Numbered from the stretch's first letter, positions 7,769 through 20,330 are shown. The stretch is DNA of 64,000 nucleotides from Candidatus Heimdallarchaeota archaeon (GCA_018238155.1 JABCTZ010000041.1:1-64000); one strand, 5' to 3'. The notes: generated by a model not told the origin, from the letters alone. Made by a program: numbers and translations.

Positions 7769-8635
7769 TTATTTAGACAAATTTTCAATTATTATTTTCC
7801 ATATTTCTTTTAGCTCTTCTGCAACACAATTTTTTGGCATTTCCAATATACTCTTACGTGCAATGATACTTTGAGGAACAATTGTATCATAAGGTATTTT
7901 TCCGGCAAGGACAATACCATTTTCTTTACAGAATTTCTCTATTTCTTGAGTTATCCGTTCATTCAAATCGCTTTTATTTATGCATACAAGAGCTTTTACG
8001 TTAAAATGGATTGTCACATCTAGAATACGTTTTAGGTCATGAATTCCACTTAACGTTGGTTCCACAACAATGAGTGCTAAATCTACTCCGGTTATTGAGG
8101 CGATGACAGGGCAACCAATACCTGGAGATCCATCAACAATAACATATGTTAGGTTTTTTTCTTCAGCAATTTTGCGAGCTTCTTTTCTTACTGTGTCTAC
8201 AATTCGTCCGGAAGAGCCTTCACCAATTTCCATATTTGCATGGACAAAAGAACCGAAGCGTGTATTTGATATTAATATTCTTGCAGATAAAAATGCTTCA
8301 AGAGTCAATGCTTTTTCAGGGCAAACACGTATACAGAGACCGCATCCTTCACATCGATATCTATCATATGTATCTGCAGTGATAGCATCAAATTGACAAT
8401 GTTCTCCACACAAATTGCATTTTTTGCATAAATCTTCATTACGAACAACTTTCTTGGAAATGTTCAAATCTGTTGTAGAAATTATTTCTGGGTGAAGTAT
8501 TAGATGCAAATCAGGTGCATCTACATCTGCATCAGCCATTACAGCACTACCTTTTGCCAGATAAGCTATCCCTGCTGCAACTGTTGTCTTTCCTGTACCT
8601 CCTTTCCCACTAATAATTGTAATTTGTTTAACCAT
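7769..8635 (-). CDS. MinD/ParA-family P-loop ATPase with inserted 4Fe-4S ferredoxin domain (COG1149)
   Basis: SGKGGTGKTT, DADVDAPD, two CxxCxxCxxxC motifs, DGSPGIGCPV. Confidence 0.92.
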   Translation of the reverse strand: MVKQITIISGKGGTGKTTVAAGIAYLAKGSAVMADADVDAPDLHLILHPEIISTTDLNISKKVVRNEDLCKKCNLCGEHCQFDAITADTYDRYRCEGCGLCIRVCPEKALTLEAFLSARILISNTRFGSFVHANMEIGEGSSGRIVDTVRKEARKIAEEKNLTYVIVDGSPGIGCPVIASITGVDLALIVVEPTLSGIHDLKRILDVTIHFNVKALVCINKSDLNERITQEIEKFCKENGIVLAGKIPYDTIVPQSIIARKSILEMPKNCVAEELKEIWKIIIENLSK

Positions 8636-9476
8636 TAAATTTAACTCTCCTCTCGATTTCTGCATATAAATTTTGGAATCGTTTTTTCCATTCAGGCATT
8701 ATTTCCACTAATGATTTTCCTTCAGAATAAGCCTTAGCAATTTCTTTTTCAAAAGGAATTTTCATTAATATTGGTATATCTTCCTTTTTACAGAATTCTT
8801 CTACTGAATTATCCCCGCCCAATCCGTCACGATTAATGATCACTCCAAAAGGTATTCCTAGACTTTTAACTACGTTTACTGCAATTGTTAAATCATACAG
8901 ACCAAAAGGAGTTGGTTCAGTAACTAATATGCAATAATCAGTTTCATTTATTGTTTCAATGACAGGACATGAATTTCCCGGTGGGGCGTCTAATAGAGCA
9001 ATAGAGTTGTTTTTAATTTTTGATTTTACTTTTTGAATGACAGGTATTCCTCTTGGAATTCCAATATCTAATAATCCATTAACAAATTCGATGGAATCAT
9101 ATGCTTTCCCAATATTAATTTCACCTACACAGAATCTCTGTTCTGAGATTGCATCTTCAGGACAAACAAATTCACATGCTTTGCAGCTCATACACAATTC
9201 CTTGAAAAAGATAATAGTATTTGGTAAAGCTACCAATGAATTAAACTCACATGCTTCAGCACAAAGACCACATTTTGTGCATTTTTCATCATCAATTAAA
9301 GGATTGTAAACAGTAACGCTTTCTGTTGTCAATATTGTTGGTTTAAGGAAAATATGTGCATTTGGTTCTTCTACGTCACAATCAAGAAATTGACATTCTT
9401 GTAATGAGATTGCGAGATTAATTGCTACTGTTGTTTTTCCAGTGCCACCTTTGCCACTTGCTATGCTAATTTTCAT
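8628..9476 (-). CDS. MinD/ParA-family P-loop ATPase with inserted 4Fe-4S ferredoxin domain (COG1149)
   Basis: SGKGGTGKTT, DCDVEEPN, two ferredoxin motifs, DAPPGNSCPV, TEPTPFG. Confidence 0.92.
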   Translation of the reverse strand: MKISIASGKGGTGKTTVAINLAISLQECQFLDCDVEEPNAHIFLKPTILTTESVTVYNPLIDDEKCTKCGLCAEACEFNSLVALPNTIIFFKELCMSCKACEFVCPEDAISEQRFCVGEINIGKAYDSIEFVNGLLDIGIPRGIPVIQKVKSKIKNNSIALLDAPPGNSCPVIETINETDYCILVTEPTPFGLYDLTIAVNVVKSLGIPFGVIINRDGLGGDNSVEEFCKKEDIPILMKIPFEKEIAKAYSEGKSLVEIMPEWKKRFQNLYAEIERRVKFNG

Positions 9477-9543
9477 ATTGTTTGCCTACTATGCTTGATT
9501 TTCATAATAAAAGAAATTAAAAAAGAAAAAAAGAGTAATTCTG

Positions 9544-9912
9544 TTAGTGTTTGCTTTCAGTACAGCCATCTGTTTCAGAGGCCATTGTAAGCTCTCCTTT
9601 ATTATAAGATTCTAAAGCTTCTTTCACTTGAACACGTTGAGTAATAAATACTCCAATGTTAAGTTCATTGAATAAATTGATAGCTTTTCTTCCAAGTCCT
9701 TTACAAATAAGAACATTTATTTTACTATTTTGTAAAGTCACAGGTGCAGAGTTTTTTCCTCCAAAATGTTCACCAATATTTTCAAGAACGGAAACATCAT
9801 TGTTTTCTGTATCAACTACTGTATATAGTGGTGCTCTACCAAAATGGTCTGCCATTGTTGCTTCTAATTTTTTATCGTCCATTACAGGGAATGCTATTTT
9901 CATTTTAATCAA
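9544..9912 (-). CDS. NifB/NifX-family Fe-Mo cofactor-binding domain protein
   Basis: MKIAFP...HFGRAP...ICKGLG.KA. Confidence 0.9.
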   Translation of the reverse strand: MIKMKIAFPVMDDKKLEATMADHFGRAPLYTVVDTENNDVSVLENIGEHFGGKNSAPVTLQNSKINVLICKGLGRKAINLFNELNIGVFITQRVQVKEALESYNKGELTMASETDGCTESKH

Positions 9913-9923
9913 ACTCGTTTTTT

Positions 9924-10334
9924 TTACTGATTGCGTCCTCTTCCTTGTCCCATACCGCGACCACCACCCATTCCAGTGTGTCCACTATTAGATGGTCCAG
10001 TTGCTTGGGGTAATTCTTTATTTTTAAGTTTAGCTAGTGCATCATTTATTGATCCGCTAAAAATATACGTCTCGATTTTTGCTGCATTGAGTGTCATAAA
10101 TGCATTTGGTCCATATTGATTAGAAATAACTGCATCTACTTTGTGTTTAGCAATTATTTGCGCTGCCATAGTTCCTGCTCCATGACCTTCGTATTGAGCT
10201 TTATTTTCAAAAGCTTCAAATGACATATCATTCAATTCAACGATAATAAAATGACTACATCGTCCAAATCTTGGATCTACGGGTCCTTCTAGATTATCAT
10301 TTGTTGCTGGTATTGCTACTCTCATTCGTATCAC
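9924..10334 (-). CDS. NifB/NifX-family protein with Gly/Arg-rich tail (IssA-like)
   Basis: MRVAIP..RFGRC..HGAG..GPNA; tail GMGGGRGMGQGRGR. Confidence 0.88.
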   Translation of the reverse strand: MIRMRVAIPATNDNLEGPVDPRFGRCSHFIIVELNDMSFEAFENKAQYEGHGAGTMAAQIIAKHKVDAVISNQYGPNAFMTLNAAKIETYIFSGSINDALAKLKNKELPQATGPSNSGHTGMGGGRGMGQGRGRNQ

Positions 10335-10406
10335 TTTGTATTAGATAGTACTATTATATTATTAATTAATAAATTAAATAGAAATTCTTCTGAATTATCT
10401 TTTCAA

Positions 10407-10763
10407 TTATCTTAATCGTTTTAGTTTTTGTTTCAAATCTTTTAACTCAGTTTCCAAGTCATTTATCTGGTTAGCGAGTGTATTTCTTTCTTGTTTAGGA
10501 TTCTCTTCAGTGAAATTCTGGAAGGTTTCTTGCCAATATTTACTACTTGGTGTACCTGCAGAATAATCTTTCAGAAATTCATCCATTTGCCCTGTTTTTT
10601 GTAAATATGTTGCACAAGGACCCATACCTCTTCCTAATCCAATTCTATTTCCTCTACTTGCAAAGCCAGGTGAATTTCCATTCTTGATCCATCTAGGTGT
10701 ACCAGTTAATTCATACATTCTTCTATGTCTGCCGTTTTGATTGTTTCCTCTGCCATTTCTCAT
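10407..10763 (-). CDS. DUF5320-like protein
   Basis: MYELTGTPRW, GRGMGPC and a C-terminal coiled coil (ERNTLANQINDLETELKDLKQKL); typical neighbour of NifX/DUF134 clusters. Confidence 0.65.
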   Translation of the reverse strand: MRNGRGNNQNGRHRRMYELTGTPRWIKNGNSPGFASRGNRIGLGRGMGPCATYLQKTGQMDEFLKDYSAGTPSSKYWQETFQNFTEENPKQERNTLANQINDLETELKDLKQKLKRLR

Positions 10764-10823
10764 AATGTTCACGATTACACTATTTTTGTGTAATGCCACA
10801 TAATTCACTTTTGCTATTTAAGG

Positions 10824-10847
10824 CTTTTTGTTCATATGCACAAAAAG
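10824..10847. promoter_or_regulatory. Palindromic operator candidate between divergent genes
   Basis: CTTTTTGTTCATATGCACAAAAAG, a 24-bp inverted repeat with one mismatched pair. Confidence 0.65.
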
Positions 10848-10909
10848 ATAATAAGCTTCTTAAGGGTCAATTAAGCTACAATTGTATAGAAAAACAGATT
10901 GGTGATTAT

Positions 10910-11248
10910 ATGAGAAACTATCGCTGTCGAAGGGGACGAAGGATGGGTCCAGAAGAGGATTATATGCAACCGATGCGAGGAAGACCTCTCAAAGAAATAG
11001 AAATTGAGGCTTTCCCAAAAATAGAAAGAGTTGTACCAAGTCCCCAAATATCTGATGAAACAGTTTTTTTATCAATAGCAGAATATGAAGCGTTACGTTT
11101 AGTAGATCTTGAAGGTTTGAATCAATTTGATACAGGAAATTCAATGAACGTATCTAGGGGAACGATATGGCGATTATTAGATTCAGGAAGAAGAAAATTG
11201 ATTCAAGTTATAGCTGAAGGCAAGAATCTAGAAATTGAAAAACAATAA
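10910..11248 (+). CDS. DUF134 family HTH DNA-binding protein
   Basis: RGRP...EYEALRLVDLEGLNQ...MNVSRGTIWRLLDSGRRKL; GGTGA SD before ATG 10910. Confidence 0.9.
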   Translation: MRNYRCRRGRRMGPEEDYMQPMRGRPLKEIEIEAFPKIERVVPSPQISDETVFLSIAEYEALRLVDLEGLNQFDTGNSMNVSRGTIWRLLDSGRRKLIQVIAEGKNLEIEKQ

Positions 11249-12165: not shown

Positions 12166-12203
12166 CTCTCTTCTTTAACACATTGGAAAAAAAAACGAAC
12201 AGT

Positions 12204-12725
12204 TTATTCCTCAACAAATTTTTTTAACAATGTATCAAAAAACAAACGTAATTCTATTTGTGAGTGGGTATTTTCACGCATACAATAAATAGCAATATTA
12301 TTACAAAGATAACACTTTCGTTTAGTTTCTCTTTCAATATGTGAATCAGAATTGGGACCCAATACGTCAATATCCAATAATCGACCAATGGTAAAATTTT
12401 CTTCAAAATCTATTGAGGATTTTTTAACTTTTACCGGACCATCTTTTGCTAAGAAAAATGCTTCAGGACCTAGAATAGTTTCATTTTGCTCTAAAAGAGA
12501 GATCTCTTTGTGATTTTTTTTCATGTAGCTACAATAACTAAATTTACTTTTCTGGAATGCTTCTCTTATTTCAAGAGAGTTCTTAGGCCAAGAAGGGATA
12601 TTAAATTTGAAGCTAATTATGGTGGATTTATACTCCTGTTTAAAGTTATGCTGCTTAATCCAGCGAATCTCTTTAGCTCGCAGAATCTGTTTTTGAATAG
12701 CTTCAATTTCGGTCATAGAAATCAC
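12204..12725 (-). CDS. citX: Apo-citrate lyase phosphoribosyl-dephospho-CoA transferase (holo-ACP synthase)
   Basis: LRAKEIR..Q, NIP..K, GPEAF, GRLLDIDV, RKCYLC...C.R...H. Confidence 0.88.
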   Translation of the reverse strand: MISMTEIEAIQKQILRAKEIRWIKQHNFKQEYKSTIISFKFNIPSWPKNSLEIREAFQKSKFSYCSYMKKNHKEISLLEQNETILGPEAFFLAKDGPVKVKKSSIDFEENFTIGRLLDIDVLGPNSDSHIERETKRKCYLCNNIAIYCMRENTHSQIELRLFFDTLLKKFVEE

Positions 12726-12811
12726 TCTTATTTTACTATAAACAAAACAAGTCTTTAGAAATTTTTCTCAAAAAAATGGAAAGAAGAAATCCTTGTGGAT
12801 TTTCTCTCAAG

Positions 12812-14362
12812 TCACTTTTTAATTTGACGTATAACATCAAGAATCGTTCCATCACGATGTTCGATTACTGCGACAATTCTATCTTCAAATGGAATAGGAT
12901 CAGGAGCTCCACCTACCAACTCAAAAGCGATATCCCGGAGTGCTTCGATTTTCATGAAATTAATCTCATTTAACTTCACTAGCTTCGTGTAATACTTGCA
13001 TTTAGGATTAATAGCAACACCATAATCGGTTACTACCACATCAATATTCATACCTGGTGAAGTAACAGTTGTTACACGATCAATAACAACTGGATTACGT
13101 CCTCGTAAGAGAGGTAAAGCAACAATTGTTAATTTTGCTCCTTCTGAAGTGTCTTGATGACCACCAATACCATGCAATATTCGACCATCAGATTCAGTAA
13201 CTACATTGACATTATAGTTTATGTCAACTTCTGTCGCACCTAAAACAACAGTATCAAGAACGTTAACTGCTGCACCACTGCTATGAATATTGGCATATTG
13301 TGAAGCACCAATTCCAATATGATTTGGGTTATTTTTTAGTGACTGAATAGCTATTTTATCAAAAGCTTGAACATCTAAAATTCGAGTAAACAATCCTAAC
13401 TCAAGCATTTCGACAAGAGCAGAGGTAGATCCTCCCATGCCAAAAGAACCTTTGATATCTAATTCCTTCATTCGCTCACTTAGGTACTTCGTTACTGCTA
13501 AAGTAATACCTCCAGCTCCACTTTGAAATGAAAAGCGGTCTTTTAATAAACCAGAGCCTTCAATGACTTTGACACATGTTTTAGCAATACCCAAGCGTAT
13601 AGGGTCTCGAGTAATTCTTGTTGTTCCAGAGACAATACCATCAGGATCTCCAATTGGTTCCTTTATCACAACAACATAATCAACATGGTTTTGATTGATA
13701 AAGATATTATTGCAAGGAAATGGTACAAGATTATTAGTAACAGCTATAACCATATCTGCAAATTGTGCGTCAGGCACCATATAACCCAGAGGACCACAAG
13801 CTTGTTCTCCATCTACTCCATTAAGATTACCAAACTCATCGGCTGTTGGAGCACCAATAAAAGCAACATCTATTTTGCAATCTCCATCCTCGATTGAACG
13901 AGCTCGTCCTCCATGAGATCGAACTGTAAGAATACCTTTCAGCTTTCCACGAGAAATTGCATCTCCAACGGGACCGGTAACCCCACAACTGATATTTGAA
14001 ATTGTTCCATCTTCAATATATTTTACTAAAGGAGCATGAACTGGATGAATGGATGAAGGTGCTAGAGTGATATTTTTTATTCCTTTTTCAGCAATTTTCT
14101 TGATGACTAAATTCATTAAATTGTCTCCACCTCTAAAATGATGATGAAAACTAATAGTCATACCATTTTTTAATTCCGATTTTTCAATAGCTTCATCAAT
14201 TGATTGCAAAAGCTTTGTTTCACCTGGCAATCTTCTTCTAATTCTAGTAGCTGCTTTATGAGTTGGCATTGTATATTGTCCTAAGCCCATAAATGGCTGA
14301 AGTTTGCGCCCTTTGATTTTTTTTGGAATGTTTCTTCCAACGATATTTTTAGTGAATTCCAT
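12812..14362 (-). CDS. citF: Citrate lyase alpha subunit (citrate:ACP/CoA transferase)
   Basis: GMTISFHHHFRGGD, RSHGGRAR, FSFQSGAGG, GIGGHQDT. Confidence 0.96.
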   Translation of the reverse strand: MEFTKNIVGRNIPKKIKGRKLQPFMGLGQYTMPTHKAATRIRRRLPGETKLLQSIDEAIEKSELKNGMTISFHHHFRGGDNLMNLVIKKIAEKGIKNITLAPSSIHPVHAPLVKYIEDGTISNISCGVTGPVGDAISRGKLKGILTVRSHGGRARSIEDGDCKIDVAFIGAPTADEFGNLNGVDGEQACGPLGYMVPDAQFADMVIAVTNNLVPFPCNNIFINQNHVDYVVVIKEPIGDPDGIVSGTTRITRDPIRLGIAKTCVKVIEGSGLLKDRFSFQSGAGGITLAVTKYLSERMKELDIKGSFGMGGSTSALVEMLELGLFTRILDVQAFDKIAIQSLKNNPNHIGIGASQYANIHSSGAAVNVLDTVVLGATEVDINYNVNVVTESDGRILHGIGGHQDTSEGAKLTIVALPLLRGRNPVVIDRVTTVTSPGMNIDVVVTDYGVAINPKCKYYTKLVKLNEINFMKIEALRDIAFELVGGAPDPIPFEDRIVAVIEHRDGTILDVIRQIKK

Positions 14363-14379
14363 ACTAAATACCCTCTAAA

Positions 14380-15297
14380 TTATCTCTTTCTCCCTGCTTT
14401 TGCACGTTTCAAAATCCTTTCAGATCTCTTCACAACGGGAACATCAATCATTCTATTATCCACACAAATAACACCCACACCTTGCTCTTGAGCAATTTTA
14501 TAAGCACCTACAATTCTTTCTGCTCGTTCTATTTGCTCCTCAGTAGGCATGAATGATTTATGAATTAATTCAATTTGACTTGGGTGAATACATGCTTTTC
14601 CGTCATATCCTAACCGAACTATTTTCTTTGTTTGAAGTAATAAACCAACATTGTCTCTGATGTTTGTGTAAACAGTATCATAAACTTGAATACCTGCTCC
14701 CCGTGCTGCTAGGAGTAATTTTGATCGAATGTACAATAATTCTTCTCCCTCAACAGTACGTTCCGCGCCTAAATCTGCTGTTAAATCTTCACCACCAGGG
14801 CTTATTCCAACGATTCTATCACTAGCTAAAGCAATTTGTTCAGCTTGTAGAACACCCCAAGCAGATTCGATAATTGGAGTTAATTTTACTGTACCAATTG
14901 CCATACCATTTCTTTCTTCGATATTGGCCATTTTATCACATATTTCTAGTATTTGTTTATGCGTTTCGGCTTTTGGTAAAACTATTGCATAAGGTTTTGT
15001 GGGGATAATTTCATTCAAATCATCTTCAAAAAATTCTGTCCCTAAAGGGTTAATTCTAACTGTTACTTCTGTTTCACCGAAATTCAGTGCTTTAAGTGCA
15101 TTACGAACCAATATCCTTGCAGAGTCTTTCTGATTGATAGCAACACCGTCTTCCAAATCAAATATTACTTGATCTGCACCAAAGAGAGGAGCATTTCGAA
15201 TCATTGCAGGATTATTGCCTGGAATGTAAAGGCGAGTCCTTCGTATTTTTGTTACATCTTCAATAGTTCGTTTTATAATTTTAACATCTTTTGCCAT
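14380..15297 (-). CDS. citE: Citrate lyase beta subunit (citryl-ACP lyase)
   Basis: RRTRLYIPGNNP, FDLEDGVA..KDSAR, IESAWG, GEDLTADL, GKACIHPSQI. Confidence 0.95.
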   Translation of the reverse strand: MAKDVKIIKRTIEDVTKIRRTRLYIPGNNPAMIRNAPLFGADQVIFDLEDGVAINQKDSARILVRNALKALNFGETEVTVRINPLGTEFFEDDLNEIIPTKPYAIVLPKAETHKQILEICDKMANIEERNGMAIGTVKLTPIIESAWGVLQAEQIALASDRIVGISPGGEDLTADLGAERTVEGEELLYIRSKLLLAARGAGIQVYDTVYTNIRDNVGLLLQTKKIVRLGYDGKACIHPSQIELIHKSFMPTEEQIERAERIVGAYKIAQEQGVGVICVDNRMIDVPVVKRSERILKRAKAGRKR

Positions 15298-15299
15298 TC

Positions 15300-15578
15300 C
15301 TATACCTCCTTTTGAACAGCTCGACTCAATGCTGTTTCCGTTCGGGCTTTTATTGTGAACCCTAAAGCTCCTTTGTCAATTGCTTGAATATTTACATCTT
15401 CTACTTCAAATTCCTTTATTATAGATTCAATTTCTTCACGAATTTTTCTACCATATTGAACTGAAGAAGATGATTCAAGATTTATTACTATACCAGTACC
15501 AGTTTTCCCCTTTTTTACAGTAACTAGAATATCTTGAGATTCAAGGGTTCCGGCTTGTGTTGAACGAAGAATTTTCAC
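15300..15578 (-). CDS. citD: Citrate lyase acyl carrier protein (gamma subunit)
   Basis: AGTLESQD with the prosthetic-group Ser, QYG, DKGAL..TIKAR.ETA; GTG start after GGAG. Confidence 0.93.
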   Translation of the reverse strand: MKILRSTQAGTLESQDILVTVKKGKTGTGIVINLESSSSVQYGRKIREEIESIIKEFEVEDVNIQAIDKGALGFTIKARTETALSRAVQKEV

Positions 15579-15654
15579 AATGATTATCTCCAAATACTTT
15601 TTGAGCAAATTACTTTTTTTCTTATGAAAGAGTTGAAGTCAAGTGAAAATTCAC

Positions 15655-17748
15655 TCAACACTCTTCAATTTCTTTTTGCTTTTCGACCTTTGCTTTTACT
15701 AAAGGTAGTGCTCCACCTTGTTTGAGCATGTCAATTTCTTTGAATGAAAGGTTTACGCTTGTTGCAAAAGTAAATCCTTTCGTTGTATTTTCAACTTCAA
15801 TCTCAGAGATTCCCTCTTTCAATTGATCTAAATTCTTTATTACTAAATCGTCGCTTTGTTCTATTTTATCGTAAATGGTTTCATCTTTGAACTCTAATGG
15901 AAGCATTCCCCATTGTATTAGATTATCTCGATGTATTCTCGCAATGCTTTTTGCAATCACCGCACCAAGACCGAGCCACATCGGTGCAATTGCTGCATGT
16001 TCACGACTTGATCCTTGTCCGTAATTGCTTCCACCAACAATAATGAATACTCTTCGCTTGTTTTGTGGATTTAATGCTAATGCTCGTTCTACAAAAGTGT
16101 CATCAACAGGATTGAAAACAAATTGGGCAATTGCAGGAATATTTGACCTTAAAGGTAGCACCTTTGAACCTGCCATCATTATATCGTCTGTTGTGATGTC
16201 ATCACCAGTTTTAAGCAATACAGAACCTGTTATTTGATCCACTAAAGGATCATTTATTGGACAATCGACAATATTGGGCCCTTTAACAATACTAACAACA
16301 GCTCTTTCATTGTCATCTTCTAATGGAAAGATGAACATATTCTTCGAAGTGATGAATTGATCCGGTTCGTTGAAAACTTCTGGACTAATGTCTTTTTCCT
16401 GTAAGGGATCAACAAATCTTCCTCGAACAGCAATTAATGCAGCTGAAGCAGCACTCATAAGATAAGAACCGGCAGATTTTTCTCCAGATCTTCCAAAGAA
16501 GTTTCTGTTGAAAGTTCGACAAGATATGCTATTAGTAGGAGGTGTTTGACCCATTCCTATACATGGTCCACAAGTACACTCTAACATTCTTGCACCAGTT
16601 TCAAGGATATCTGCAAGTAATCCATCTCGAGCAATTTGTGTTACTACGTTTTTTGAACCTGGGGATATTGTTAAGCTGATATGTGGAGCTACTGCTTGTT
16701 TTTTCATCACAGATGCTGCAGTTGCTAAAGCAAGATATGAAGCATTTGTACAAGAACCAATACAGACTTGATCCACTTTTAAATCTCGAGAGTATAAACG
16801 TTCGATGTGTTCCTTGATATCTGTATGTACCTTTTCAGGCATATTTTTCACTATTTCATTAATAGGAGTACGTTCGACAAGTTTGCGTATGGAAACAACT
16901 GAACCTGGGCTATGAGGTAATGCAACATTTGGTTCAAGTTTTGATAAATTAATTTCAATAACTTGATCATATTTTGCATCTTTGTCAGCTTCTAATGGTG
17001 TATAATCCTCTCCCCTTCCTTGTGCTTTAAGAAAGTGTTGAGTTATTTCATCACTTGGAAAGATAGAAGTAGTTGGACCCAATTCGGCACCCATATTTGT
17101 AATTGTTGCTCTTTCCGGAGCAGTTAAATCTTTAACACCAGGACCAGAATATTCGAAAATTGCTTTTCTACCACCACGAACGCCTTTCATTTTTAGCAGC
17201 TCAAGAATAACATCCATTGCTGTAACCCATGGTTTTCGCAGTTTCCCTGAAAGATGAACTTTTATTATATTGGGATATTTGAGTTCGAATGGTTCGCCTG
17301 CCATTGTTGTTGCAATAACCAATCCACCAACACCAATTGCTAATGAGCCAACTCCACCTGCGGTGGGCGTATGTGAATCTGAGCCTAAGAGAATCTTCCC
17401 GGGAGCAGCGAAATTTTCAAGATGAACTTGATGAATAATGCCATTTCCAGGACGAGATAAAATAGCTCCTTTTTTTGCAGCGATTGAGCGCAAAAACTGA
17501 TGATCATCAGCATTTCTAAAGTCAGTTTGTAAAGTATTATGATCAATATAGGATACTGCCAAAGGAACTTTAATATCTGGAATATCAATGGCTTCGAATT
17601 CCAACCAAGCCATTGTTCCTGTAGCATCTTGTGTGATACATTGATCAACTTTAACAAATACCGGGTCACCAGGTTGATATTCTTCAACCTTCTTTCCAGA
17701 GATATCATGTGCTTCCAGTATTTTTTGGACAATATTTTTACCAGTCAT
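15655..17748 (-). CDS. acn: Aconitate hydratase
   Basis: QDATGTMA, DHN, GIIHQVH, DSHT, IGSCTN, CGPCIG, TFNRNF.GR, NYGQGSSREHAA. Confidence 0.93.
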   Translation of the reverse strand: MTGKNIVQKILEAHDISGKKVEEYQPGDPVFVKVDQCITQDATGTMAWLEFEAIDIPDIKVPLAVSYIDHNTLQTDFRNADDHQFLRSIAAKKGAILSRPGNGIIHQVHLENFAAPGKILLGSDSHTPTAGGVGSLAIGVGGLVIATTMAGEPFELKYPNIIKVHLSGKLRKPWVTAMDVILELLKMKGVRGGRKAIFEYSGPGVKDLTAPERATITNMGAELGPTTSIFPSDEITQHFLKAQGRGEDYTPLEADKDAKYDQVIEINLSKLEPNVALPHSPGSVVSIRKLVERTPINEIVKNMPEKVHTDIKEHIERLYSRDLKVDQVCIGSCTNASYLALATAASVMKKQAVAPHISLTISPGSKNVVTQIARDGLLADILETGARMLECTCGPCIGMGQTPPTNSISCRTFNRNFFGRSGEKSAGSYLMSAASAALIAVRGRFVDPLQEKDISPEVFNEPDQFITSKNMFIFPLEDDNERAVVSIVKGPNIVDCPINDPLVDQITGSVLLKTGDDITTDDIMMAGSKVLPLRSNIPAIAQFVFNPVDDTFVERALALNPQNKRRVFIIVGGSNYGQGSSREHAAIAPMWLGLGAVIAKSIARIHRDNLIQWGMLPLEFKDETIYDKIEQSDDLVIKNLDQLKEGISEIEVENTTKGFTFATSVNLSFKEIDMLKQGGALPLVKAKVEKQKEIEEC

Positions 17749-17777
17749 TATATTGTCTACCTTCTTGAGTAATTATT

Positions 17778-19079
17778 TCATAGATTAGTTATGATTGCTT
17801 CTGCAAATTCAGAAGTACCAATTGGTTCAACATCACTTAATTGTCTAGCAATATCATAAGTAACCTTTCTCTGAGCGATTGCTTTTTCAACACCAGAATT
17901 GATTATTTCTGCTGCTTCAGTCCAATCCATGTAATCAAGCATCATTATTGCTGAATAGATTACTGAACCGGGATTGACTTTGTTTAATCCCGCATGTTTT
18001 GGTGCAGTTCCATGTGTTGCTTCAAAAACAGCTGCTTTATCACCAACATTTGCTCCTGGAGCAAAACCTAACCCACCAACTTGTGCTGCAAGTGCATCAG
18101 AAATATAATCACCATTTAAGTTTGGCAAGGCAAGAACACCATATTCAGCTGGACGGAGAAGTATTTGTTGAAACATAGAATCAGCGATTCTGTCACTTAT
18201 CATAACTTTTCCTTCAGGTATTTTACCATCGAATTTATCGTAAACCTCTTTTTCGGTTATAACTGAATCAGCGAATTCTTCAGCAGCTAATTTGTAACCC
18301 CAGTCTTTGAATTTACCTTCAGTAAATTTCATAATATTGCCTTTGTGAACTAAAGTTACTTTATCAAATCCTTTCTCAAATGCATAATTAATTGCCATAC
18401 GAACTAATCTGGAAGTGTTAGCCCAAGACATTGGTTTAATACCAATACCAGATTCCATTGTGATATTCTTTCCAAGTTTATCATTAAGAAAAGTAATTAG
18501 CTTCTTTGCATCGGCAGATTCAGGCTCAAATTCAATTCCCGAATAAACATCTTCAATATTTTCTCTGAAAATAACCATATTGACATTTTCAGGATGCTTC
18601 ACTGGAGCAGGTACACCTTTGATATGTTTTGCCGGTCGGATACAAGAATAAAGGTCTAATTTTTGTCTAATAGCAACATTTAGGCTTCTAAAACCACCAC
18701 CAATAGGTGTTGTCAATGGTCCCTTAATAGCAATGACATGATCCACAATAGCATTTAGTGTATCTTTTGGTAAGTAAAGATCTCTCAATACTGCTGGGTC
18801 GAGCTCACTTAATTGTTCATCAGAATATTCTGCAGCATAGATTTTTCGTGCTTTGTCACCAGCAAATATTTCAAACCAAATGATTTCCTTTTTGCCATTG
18901 TAAGCTTTTTTAACTGCTGCATCAACTACTTTTTTCATTGCATCCATGATTTCTGGACCTATTCCATCTCCTGCAATATATGGTATAATAGGTTTATCAG
19001 GAACAATGTTTTTCCCACTATCATCTTTTGTTATTTTTTCTCCTGTTTTTGGTGGAGTTATTTTGTCATAGCCGCTCAT
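17778..19079 (-). CDS. icd: Isocitrate dehydrogenase (NADP-type, E. coli-like)
   Basis: [67 protein letters not shown]. Confidence 0.96.
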
Positions 19080-19415
19080 GAGATATCCTCACATTGGAAA
19101 TTTATTTTTTTGAATACTTTTGTACAAAAGTAACATGTATCCGAATGACCCTTTCAAAACGAGTTACATTTAAAATTATCCATTAATATTTATTAAAAAA
19201 AATCTGAACGTGCTTGTTTAAATAGATGTTTGAAAAATCAAATTGCTATTAAACAAATCATTTTTTTTTATTATTAATAGAATAGTTATTTTTACATTGT
19301 GAACAATAGAAGAAGCGTTTTGGCAAACAATTTATAAGTCTCTAAACGTAAAAAGAACTAATTTGTTGAGAAAGTAATTTTAGTTTGAGTAAAAAAAACA
19401 GGTTAAAAAACTAAA

Positions 19416-20330
19416 ATGGTGAAAAAACAAATGGGTCAAAAAAAAGTCGCTTTATTAACTTGTGCAGCTGCAGATATTCCTCCGGAATTAGAGAAGAAAT
19501 ATCAGATTACAATAGCTCCTGTATTGCTTAATTTTGAAGAAAAGTCATACAAAAGCTATGGTATTGAAAAGGGATTAACATGGGAAGAATTTTACAGAGT
19601 ATCAGAAAACGAAGTGCCATCAACCGCTATTCCAGGACCAGGACACTTTAAGAAAGCCTTCGATGAAGCCTTTGAAATCGCTGATTCCGTAATAGCTATT
19701 TTTATCTCACATAAAATGTCAGGAATGTTTCAAACTGCAACAAAAGTTGCAGATGAGTTCTTCAAAGATAAAGATGTTTCAGTTTATCATGGTGGAGTCT
19801 CTTGTGTAGGAACAGGAGCACTTGTAATTGAATGCTGTAAATTAGCTGAACAAGGTAAATCTAAAGCTGATATTGTTACCAAGCTAGAAGAATGGATTCC
19901 CCAAGCTAATTATTCAGGTATCATTAACACTCTGGACAATCTTGTTAAAACAGGTAGACTATCAAAAGCGAAAAAATTCTTTGCTGATATGCTAAAGTTC
20001 AAACCTGTACTTGGATACGTTGATGATGAGCTACATGTTTATGGAAACATTCGTGCAGATGATAAAATAATTATTTCTCAAATGAAGAAATTTGGTCAGA
20101 AAGCAATAGAGAATATTCATCCTGGAACAAGCACTCTCATTGTAAATCATTCACGCTGGTCCGAAGCAGGAAATGAAATAGCTGATTTCCTTAGAAAACT
20201 ACCAAACCACAATGTTGAAGTCATTGTTCAAGAAACAGGTGTAATTAACTCATTCTACACAGGAAAAAAACTATTAGCTCTAGGTTACATAGGTAAATAT
20301 GATCATAAATGGTTAATGAATACTAAATAA
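19416..20330 (+). CDS. DegV family fatty-acid-binding protein
   Basis: PSTAIPGP, ISHKMSGMFQ, LDNLVKTGRLS, LKFKPVL. Confidence 0.88.
   Translation: MVKKQMGQKKVALLTCAAADIPPELEKKYQITIAPVLLNFEEKSYKSYGIEKGLTWEEFYRVSENEVPSTAIPGPGHFKKAFDEAFEIADSVIAIFISHKMSGMFQTATKVADEFFKDKDVSVYHGGVSCVGTGALVIECCKLAEQGKSKADIVTKLEEWIPQANYSGIINTLDNLVKTGRLSKAKKFFADMLKFKPVLGYVDDELHVYGNIRADDKIIISQMKKFGQKAIENIHPGTSTLIVNHSRWSEAGNEIADFLRKLPNHNVEVIVQETGVINSFYTGKKLLALGYIGKYDHKWLMNTK

Follow-up and report, generated by a model that had tools for sequence, protein, structure and literature searches.

What does an acyl carrier protein (ACP)-dependent citrate lyase do in an archaeon in which its genes directly follow those for isocitrate dehydrogenase and aconitase? 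The question is raised by a 64,000-nucleotide stretch of DNA from Candidatus Heimdallarchaeota archaeon (GCA_018238155.1, JABCTZ010000041.1:1–64000), here called the window, in which icd, acn, citD, citE, citF and citX follow one another on the minus strand from position 19079 down to 12204. The window is contig C4 of the genome we denote G000. Judged from the sequence, the most likely reading, at about an even chance, is that this operon would run from 2-oxoglutarate and CO2 through isocitrate and citrate to oxaloacetate and acetate, without the use of ATP. The identities and layout of the genes, the accessory genes, the lack of other enzymes for this step and the distribution among relatives are read from the sequences; we infer that citrate is the substrate, that it is cleaved rather than made, and that the pathway has either a catabolic role or one in a reductive loop.

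The original prediction described six co-oriented, closely spaced genes, and all six open reading frames (ORFs) were indeed found head to tail on the minus strand, each matching its expected family. The first gene, icd (17778–19079), encodes an NADP-dependent isocitrate dehydrogenase of 433 amino acids (aa; TIGR00183, 625 bits, cut-off 567), and acn (15655–17748) encodes a 697-aa aconitate hydratase with fused large and small subunits (PRK07229, 849 bits, cut-off 612; TIGR01342, 777 bits, cut-off 719). The closest non-Asgard relatives of this aconitase are from Nitrospirota (54–56% identity). Then come the adjacent genes for the three lyase subunits: citD (15300–15608) for the acyl carrier protein, or gamma subunit (TIGR01608, 76 bits, cut-off 63.5); citE (14380–15297) for the 305-aa beta subunit, an acyl-ACP C–C lyase of the HpcH/HpaI TIM-barrel fold (PF03328, 208 bits; TIGR01588, 322.6 bits, below the cut-off of 443); and citF (12812–14362) for the 516-aa alpha subunit, an acetyl-ACP:tricarboxylate ACP-transferase (PF04223, 554 bits; TIGR01584, 612 bits, cut-off 501). 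The last gene, citX (12204–12725), encodes a 173-aa holo-ACP synthase (PF03802, 117 bits; TIGR03124, 103.9 bits, cut-off 105.25). In NCBI, these proteins are already annotated as subunits of citrate lyase.

The spacers between the genes, in the order from icd to citX, are 29, 46, 2, 17 and 86 nt long, so that only 2 nt separate citD from citE and 17 nt citE from citF. Every gene except citX has a GGAG-type ribosome-binding site, which in the case of citD stands before a GTG codon at 15578. The GGAG lies 8 nt upstream of this GTG, which is probably the real start of citD and would give a protein of 92 aa. An AT-rich stretch of 336 nt (19080–19415, minus strand) between icd and a divergent DegV gene is the presumed promoter region, and a T9 run on the minus strand (12187–12195), 8 nt past the citX stop codon, is the likely archaeal oligo-T terminator of the operon. 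A T7 run (12770–12776, minus strand) within the 86-nt citF–citX spacer may be a partial terminator, so citX is possibly expressed at a lower level; apart from these two runs there were no oligo-T runs in the spacers. The layout fits a single transcription unit that would extend from icd through citF or citX. Scans for tRNAs and Rfam families found no RNA genes in the window.

For this enzyme family it is established that the carrier is acetylated, and that CitF carries out the exchange and CitE the cleavage. CitD keeps the AGTLESQD motif with the prosthetic-group serine, aligned to the motif of Klebsiella pneumoniae and Escherichia coli, and in the alignment of CitE the catalytic residues R81, E144 and D171 are all kept. 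The citF product matches PDB entry 2HJ0 with 491 bits and also matches PDB entry 1XR4.

Which other enzymes could act on citrate in this genome? No protein of G000 matches PF00285, so neither citrate synthase nor the alpha subunit of ATP-citrate lyase (ACL) nor citryl-CoA lyase (CCL) was found, and there was no second, ACL-type ATP-grasp_2 gene. The single HMGL-fold gene is leuA, which lies on contig C16 in a leuA-C-D-B row; it was therefore rejected as a candidate for Re-citrate synthase. Membrane oxaloacetate decarboxylase and pyruvate carboxylase were rejected as well, as no HMGL-fold carboxyltransferase subunit is present in G000. With no citrate synthase, ACL or CCL detected, nothing but the lyase was found to connect citrate with oxaloacetate. 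The icd gene of the operon encodes the sole true Icd of the genome (the other Iso_dh homologues are ~29% identical), and acn encodes its main aconitase.

The genes for lyase maturation are complete but dispersed. The original prediction listed citC, citG, a citrate carrier, oxaloacetate decarboxylase and citrate synthase as missing from the window, and this holds for all of them. Searching the genome as it had proposed, we found citC (citrate-lyase ligase) on contig C7 (TIGR00124, 313 bits, cut-off 262) together with citG (256 bits, slightly under the cut-off of 272). The two are convergent neighbors (C7:63083–71846; locus L077, 2083–10847), and a second, generic archaeal CitG-like gene is found on C45. 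By tblastn, citX has a single place in the genome, that in the operon. The presence of citC and citG does not refute the use of internal citrate, since any holo-lyase needs both. About 6 kb upstream of the citG/citC pair we noted a second hydro-lyase pair of the LeuC/LeuD (HacA/HacB) type and a CheY-like receiver. The carboxylate carriers searched were 2HCT, CitMHS and DASS (TRAP and TTT were not). A 2HCT carrier was found in none of the 12 genomes of the window's family (f1, which includes G000). The match to CitMHS was generic and fell on the same gene as the DASS match, leaving one DASS symporter on contig C17, unlinked to the lyase genes, as the sole candidate (TIGR00785, 302 bits, cut-off 198.6). 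This symporter occurs in 12/12 family genomes, with or without CitF.

Several Kor/Por-type oxidoreductases, SucCD, a class I fumarase, malic enzyme and glutamate dehydrogenase are also encoded in G000. SucCD and fumarase score above their cut-offs. In the proposed search for 2-oxoglutarate:ferredoxin oxidoreductase, the alpha subunits of Kor type scored above the cut-off for 2-oxoacids in general and below the one specific to 2-oxoglutarate. A TfrA-like fumarate-reductase flavoprotein reaches 324 bits versus a cut-off of 718, and the sole malate dehydrogenase candidate is an Ldh_2 protein that is under all cut-offs; no LDH-type malate dehydrogenase was found across the family. The substrate specificity of the Kor enzymes and the malate dehydrogenase assignment are uncertain. 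On contig C39 (89098–101298; loci L090 and L095) a co-oriented row holds Kor delta/alpha/beta/gamma-like genes, an HdrA2-like gene, hydrogenase-sized ORFs and the TfrA-like flavoprotein gene; this row bears on whether the lyase could take part in a reductive tricarboxylic acid (TCA) cycle.

The genes belong to an archaeon, as the original prediction had stated. The G000 assembly (4.08 Mb in 46 contigs, 90.7% complete, 5.9% contaminated) contains a small-subunit rRNA that scores 1391 bits on the archaeal model, and the titles of the nearest public loci name Candidatus Heimdallarchaeota or an Asgard group archaeon. Because independent metagenome-assembled genomes (MAGs) of the same genus also contain the locus with its flanks, contamination is unlikely. 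All absences reported here are drawn from MAGs that are 64–92% complete. Homologues that NCBI labels Zixibacteria and Bathyarchaeia (P0007 and P0136; CitF 82% and aconitase 78% identical) are probably mis-binned Heimdall contigs.

CitF was found in 30 of 400 Asgard genomes, all in the class of the window. Counting the window genome, it is present in 9/12 genomes of f1, 1/1 of f2, 1/12 of f5 and 19/22 of f6. The icd-acn-citD-citE-citF-citX arrangement is kept at 75–94% aa identity in five further species of two genera (G081, G085, G086, G090 and G091); G091 represents the sister genus, and its contig ends directly after citF. In G088 the contig breaks off at citD, and what it carries is citD-citE-citF-citX. 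The corresponding locus of G083 and G089 has the same neighbors (DUF134, a 260-aa ORF and DegV) but only icd-acn; citDEFX has therefore been cleanly inserted or deleted between acn and the gene that follows.

Both citrate synthase and an AclA/AclB-like pair are present in G081, G083, G084, G085 and G087, and G088 has citrate synthase without the pair. Both enzymes are absent from G000, from G082, G086, G090 and G091 (75–90% complete) and from G089 (69% complete). In five family genomes, citrate synthase, ACL, CCL and candidates for Re-citrate synthase are all missing, and the lyase is present in every family genome at least 75% complete that lacks both citrate synthase and ACL. When the Icd tree is rooted on the sister genus, the species that have both citrate synthase and ACL group in a single subclade (94/98), and the three citDEFX-less species nest within it, beside G081, which keeps the lyase. 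This nesting indicates that the lyase was lost only where citrate synthase and ACL exist. The citC gene is found in 8/9 CitF-bearing and 0/3 CitF-less family genomes. The phyletic pattern ties the lyase to the citrate/oxaloacetate node, although with few and related genomes it is suggestive, not statistical. In G081, a citrate synthase gene lies directly downstream of one for a 930-aa AcnA-type aconitase (C107; locus L102), and this gene order points to a second, synthase-dedicated aconitase in the congeners that have citrate synthase.

What kind of lyase is it? By identity, the closest non-Asgard CitF sequences are clostridial (51–55%). We examined five of their loci (Haloimpatiens, C. drakei, Proteiniborus, Fervidicella and Peptoclostridium). 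All carry glmS/L/E and methylaspartase, and three of the five also mesaconase; the genes for ACP, beta and alpha subunits and citC/citX follow, with citG adjoining in 4/5. Such clostridial ACP-beta-alpha sets have been described as putative citramalate lyases of glutamate fermentation (PMC4682846). Classical citrate lyases found in a carrier or decarboxylase context (E. coli, K. pneumoniae, E. faecium, S. equi and Secundilactobacillus) have CitF proteins that are 43–48% identical to that of the window. On TIGR01588 (cut-off 443), E. coli CitE scores 452, whereas the Haloimpatiens beta subunit and the window CitE both score 322.6. Percent identity suggested a recent transfer from Clostridia, which the trees did not support. 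In the CitE tree the classical, citramalate and Heimdall clades meet at a node that is not resolved; the Heimdall clade comprises both paralogues of G000 described below and the f2 sequence (100/98). In the CitF tree all sequences of the Heimdall class fall on one side (90/90) of the classical and citramalate enzymes, with the Heimdall clade itself at 100/99. The window subunits thus lie outside the clade of characterized citrate lyases and outside the clostridial citramalate clade. Placement inside either was rejected, with the CitE node unresolved and the Heimdall side of the CitF tree separate at only 90/90. The trees attribute the higher identity to the citramalate enzymes to their short branches, not to nesting.

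We then compared the residues that separate the two bacterial groups, using five classical and five citramalate sequences and one ligand-bound homologue. In this set, 11 columns of CitE and 17 of CitF distinguish classical from citramalate enzymes. In E. coli numbering, the classical arginines CitE R106, CitF R139 and CitF R405 are Met, Ser and Met in the citramalate enzymes and Val, Thr and Leu in the window. Two further positions of CitE, in window numbering, differ in their pattern: position 166 is Ala in classical enzymes, Leu in four of the five citramalate enzymes (Gln in Peptoclostridium) and Ser in the window, and position 209 is Val in classical enzymes, Pro in citramalate enzymes and Val in the window. 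These positions align with Met133 and Val181 of Mycobacterium tuberculosis Rv2498c, which touch the 3-methyl group of bound (S)-citramalyl-CoA (PMC6689899). Position 166 is Leu, Met or Val in citramalyl-specific enzymes, with Val in CLYBL, and Gly in the second Heimdall copy. On this comparison the pocket around the 3-substituent is predicted to be open, as it is in citrate lyases. Basic residues peculiar to the first Heimdall copy are CitE R34, CitF H106 and CitF R256, the last of which is common to the f5 and f6 enzymes. Finally, the glutamate mutase E subunit (PF06368), whose gene adjoins the lyase in 5/5 bacterial examples, was found in none of the 12 family genomes, and the methylaspartate pathway was rejected as a source of citramalate.

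The second citD-citE-citF set of G000 is located on C7 (172294–175135; locus L004, 8294–11135), ~100 kb from citG and citC, and its products are 53–60% identical to those of the window. Neither icd nor acn nor citX lies close to this set, which adjoins a DsrE-like gene and two ABC exporters; the set is kept in G082, G085, G086 and G090. According to the trees, the two copies are Heimdall-internal paralogues. The second CitE (TIGR01588 score 320) has Gly166, Leu106 and Ala222, and the basic residues of the first copy are missing; for these reasons the second copy may have a different substrate.

Relatives of the lyase were also observed in other settings. In f6 (loci L066 in G067 and L071 in G059), CitF-like genes without citD or citE partners adjoin either a pair of AclA-like (713 aa) and AclB-like (428 aa) genes or a 258-aa citryl-CoA-lyase-like gene, and most f6 genomes have two such CitF paralogues. 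These loci may represent a carrier-free, CoA-transferase-driven citrate cleavage. Another arrangement is found in locus L011 (JAHJCW010000314.1, "MAG: bacterium ... mb.320") and in locus L064 of the f5 genome G051: a fused CitD-CitE (401 aa) and CitF occur with a 665-aa aconitase, an Iso_dh protein, a PrpD-family protein and an acyl-CoA dehydrogenase. The mb.320 CitF is sister (100/100) to that of G051, which means that the "bacterium" label is mistaken or that there was a recent move of the genes.

Taken together, citrate is the most likely substrate, because bona fide Icd and aconitase are encoded in the operon, the pocket appears open, the f6 relatives have a citrate context and glutamate mutase is lacking. 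The alternative is a lyase for citramalate or another 2-hydroxy-di- or tricarboxylate, which would lie behind icd-acn at a mere insertion site or as part of a different pathway. E. coli citrate lyase has no citramalate activity, so that the two specificities are distinct (PMC4682846), and it is the putative citramalate lyases encoded in methylaspartate operons that come closest among bacterial homologues (51–55% identity). The sub-cut-off CitE score, equal to that of those enzymes, the change of the classical-specific arginines to Val, Thr and Leu, and the discrete insertion or deletion of citDEFX at the locus also fit a lyase of another specificity. However, neither for CitE nor for CitF does the Heimdall clade fall within the citramalate clade, Ser166 and Val209 resemble the classical state and not the Leu and Pro of the citramalate clade, and no glutamate mutase E subunit was found in the 12 genomes. 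With equivalog-level Icd and aconitase as partners and the loss of citDEFX tracking the presence of citrate synthase and ACL, we regard a non-citrate lyase as quite unlikely.

Where, then, does the citrate come from? The original prediction proposed that the lyase acts on citrate made in the cell. This stands as the best reading, since the locus is unlike a fermentation set-up and the phyletic pattern ties it to the citrate/oxaloacetate node; there is no linked carrier and no oxaloacetate decarboxylase, citrate synthase, ACL or CCL. The direction of the reaction and the identity of the substrate are the less settled part of that proposal. An importer with citC or oxaloacetate decarboxylase genes elsewhere in the genome had been named as a sign of ordinary citrate fermentation, and of these citC and the unlinked DASS gene were found, the latter also in CitF-less relatives, but no decarboxylase carboxyltransferase. 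Fermentation is the established role of the CitDEF family. Citrate would be imported, for example by the DASS symporter, and cleaved, a malic enzyme, a homologue of which is present here as in the citM loci of Enterococcus, would decarboxylate the oxaloacetate, and Icd and aconitase would divert some citrate to 2-oxoglutarate and glutamate; the set of citC, citG and citX is complete. Yet the DASS gene lies on a different contig and also occurs in CitF-less genomes, the family has no 2HCT carrier, neither an alpha subunit of oxaloacetate decarboxylase nor any other HMGL-fold carboxyltransferase is present, and the lyase genes are joined to icd-acn and not to a carrier, unlike all classical loci inspected. 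We consider fermentation of imported citrate unlikely. Another option of the original prediction, that the lyase works in reverse in place of citrate synthase, is possible but thermodynamically weaker. Acetate and oxaloacetate would be joined to citrate, with aconitase and Icd pulling the reaction or CitC driving re-acetylation, to feed 2-oxoglutarate and glutamate. Such a role would suit the five family genomes without citrate synthase, ACL, CCL or a Re-citrate synthase candidate, the presence in the operon of the only Icd and the main aconitase, and the loss of citDEFX only within the citrate-synthase-bearing subclade. The gene order also mimics the synthase-aconitase-Icd operons known from anaerobes. 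By our own estimate, though, equilibrium citrate would be sub-micromolar at realistic acetate and oxaloacetate concentrations, and an ATP-driven CitC cycle with hydrolysis of the citryl thioester has no precedent. Moreover, Kor-type oxidoreductases and glutamate dehydrogenase can supply 2-oxoglutarate, and the phyletic pattern could just as well be explained by replacement of ACL. Synthesis of citrate by the lyase thus seems rather improbable, a shade more so than a lyase of other specificity.

Reductive carboxylation of 2-oxoglutarate followed by cleavage is the simplest flow through the operon, as no other enzyme was found at the node, while glutamate dehydrogenase, Kor-type enzymes and an NADP-dependent Icd are present. 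Several observations weigh against it. All five nearest bacterial homologues examined sit in glutamate-mutase/methylaspartase operons. The window CitE stays below the curated citE equivalog cut-off, and its score equals that of a clostridial beta subunit of the citramalate type. Three arginines invariant in five classical citrate lyases are replaced, so that at these sites the enzyme resembles the citramalate type. The operon coexists with citrate synthase and ACL in G081, G084 and G085, and the lyase genes coexist with citrate synthase in G088; given these congeners, the operon is not simply a replacement. What benefit the route would bring as a CO2-fixing cycle is not obvious, because free acetate would be released and ATP spent at SucCD. 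The absences in G000, a genome 91% complete and 5.9% contaminated, are no proof.

In the proposed carboxylation and cleavage of 2-oxoglutarate, CitG would provide the precursor of the prosthetic group and CitX would attach it to give holo-CitD, which CitC would acetylate once with ATP; CitG and CitC would come from C7. Icd would convert 2-oxoglutarate, CO2 and NADPH to isocitrate, and aconitase would isomerize this to citrate. CitF would then swap citrate for the acetate on acetyl-S-ACP, and CitE would split citryl-S-ACP to oxaloacetate and acetyl-S-ACP. The net products would be oxaloacetate and free acetate at a cost of zero ATP per turnover. We estimate that the cleavage of citrate to acetate and oxaloacetate is near equilibrium under standard conditions and favorable at millimolar concentrations, consistent with the citrate synthase and ACL values in Table 1 of PMC13147460. 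Two roles can be envisaged. In a catabolic role, 2-oxoglutarate derived from glutamate would be converted to acetate and oxaloacetate, and malic enzyme would take the latter to pyruvate. Glutamate would thus yield acetate, pyruvate and NH3 in a redox- and CO2-neutral, B12-free route with the same net conversion as the clostridial methylaspartate pathway. Alternatively, Kor, SucCD, fumarase, the Ldh_2-type dehydrogenase and the fumarate-reductase-like enzyme could form a reductive TCA loop that the lyase would close.

The immediate neighbors of the operon are of other kinds. Downstream (7769–11248) lies a conserved block encoding two MinD/ParA-type P-loop proteins with 4Fe-4S ferredoxin inserts, two NifX/NafY-like (Nitro_FeMo-Co) proteins, DUF5320 and a divergent DUF134 regulator; a NifX-like gene, DUF5320 and DUF134 of this block also adjoin icd-acn in G083. 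On the other side, divergent from icd (19416–20330), is a gene for a DegV/FakB-like fatty-acid-binding protein, of a family typical of bacteria, which is duplicated in G083 and G087.

We found no published description of CitDEF in Asgard or Heimdall archaea; the literature found there covers only ACL. A 2026 survey of reductive TCA (rTCA) variants lists only ACL, citryl-CoA synthetase (CCS) with CCL, and reversed citrate synthase. An icd-acn-citDEFX operon as the probable sole link between citrate and oxaloacetate in an archaeon without citrate synthase or ACL is a wiring that we did not find described. Somewhat short of an even chance, in our judgment, is the broader proposal that an ATP-independent, carrier-dependent lyase is the physiological citrate cleaver after carboxylation of 2-oxoglutarate. 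It would be a fourth solution besides ACL, CCS/CCL and reversed citrate synthase, and would either close a loop powered by the hydrogenase-Hdr-fumarate-reductase-Kor operon or provide a B12-free route for glutamate. If the reductive direction is true, this would mean either that reductive TCA chemistry can be closed without ATP or that glutamate is broken down by a new route. Reconstructions of the Asgard TCA and rTCA cycles that are scored by citrate synthase and ACL would call such genomes incomplete despite Icd, aconitase and another citrate-splitting machine. At the citrate node, a single archaeal class has citrate synthase, ACL, CitDEF and pairs of CitF with CCL-type proteins in varied combinations, a plasticity relevant to the archaeal history of eukaryotic ACL, which is under debate (PMC11976288). 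The annotation "citrate lyase" spans at least three specificity groups: classical citrate, clostridial citramalate and the Heimdall clade.

How does the operon compare with known systems? The fermentative citrate (pro-3S)-lyase loci (EC 4.1.3.6), such as citCDEFXG-citT of E. coli, citS-oad-citCDEFG of K. pneumoniae and citM-citP-citCDEFXG of Enterococcus, encode the same three subunits, and the Heimdall system shares with them the CitX, CitG and CitC maturation genes, the carrier serine and the metal-binding and Arg residues of CitE. Unlike these loci, the Heimdall operon has no linked carrier or oxaloacetate decarboxylase, its citC and citG are unlinked and it is joined to icd-acn; its CitF is 43–48% identical and falls in a separate clade, its CitE is below the cut-off, and its archaeal host has no citrate synthase. 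The clostridial citramalate lyase of the methylaspartate pathway (EC 4.1.3.22) is the closest in identity (51–55%), has an equal TIGR01588 score and likewise carries uncharged residues at the arginine sites, and under the glutamate-catabolic reading the net conversion would be the same. It differs in belonging to another clade and in having Leu and Pro where the window has Ser and Val; the Heimdall system has no glutamate mutase, and its partners are Icd and aconitase.

The recognized modes of citrate cleavage in the rTCA cycle are ACL, CCS plus CCL, and reversed citrate synthase (PMC13147460; 10.1101/2022.10.25.513756), and none of these was found in G000. As in those modes, citrate would be split to oxaloacetate and a C2 unit beside Icd and aconitase, in a genome with Kor, a fumarate-reductase-like enzyme, SucCD and fumarase. 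The Heimdall lyase is, however, unrelated in sequence, and would work through a protein-bound thioester, without ATP, to give free acetate and not acetyl-CoA; it does not appear among the rTCA variants of the reviews consulted. The f6 neighborhoods share the Heimdall-class side of the CitF tree and a citrate-related context but are without CitD, CitE and CitX, and pair CitF with citrate-synthase-fold lyases or AclA/AclB-like genes. The mb.320/f5-type locus would share the logic of reductive carboxylation, isomerization and acetate-releasing cleavage. In contrast to operons of this type, the window operon keeps the carrier serine and CitX, and since its dehydrogenase and hydratase are a bona fide Icd and aconitase, the acids it handles would be the C6 tricarboxylates themselves.

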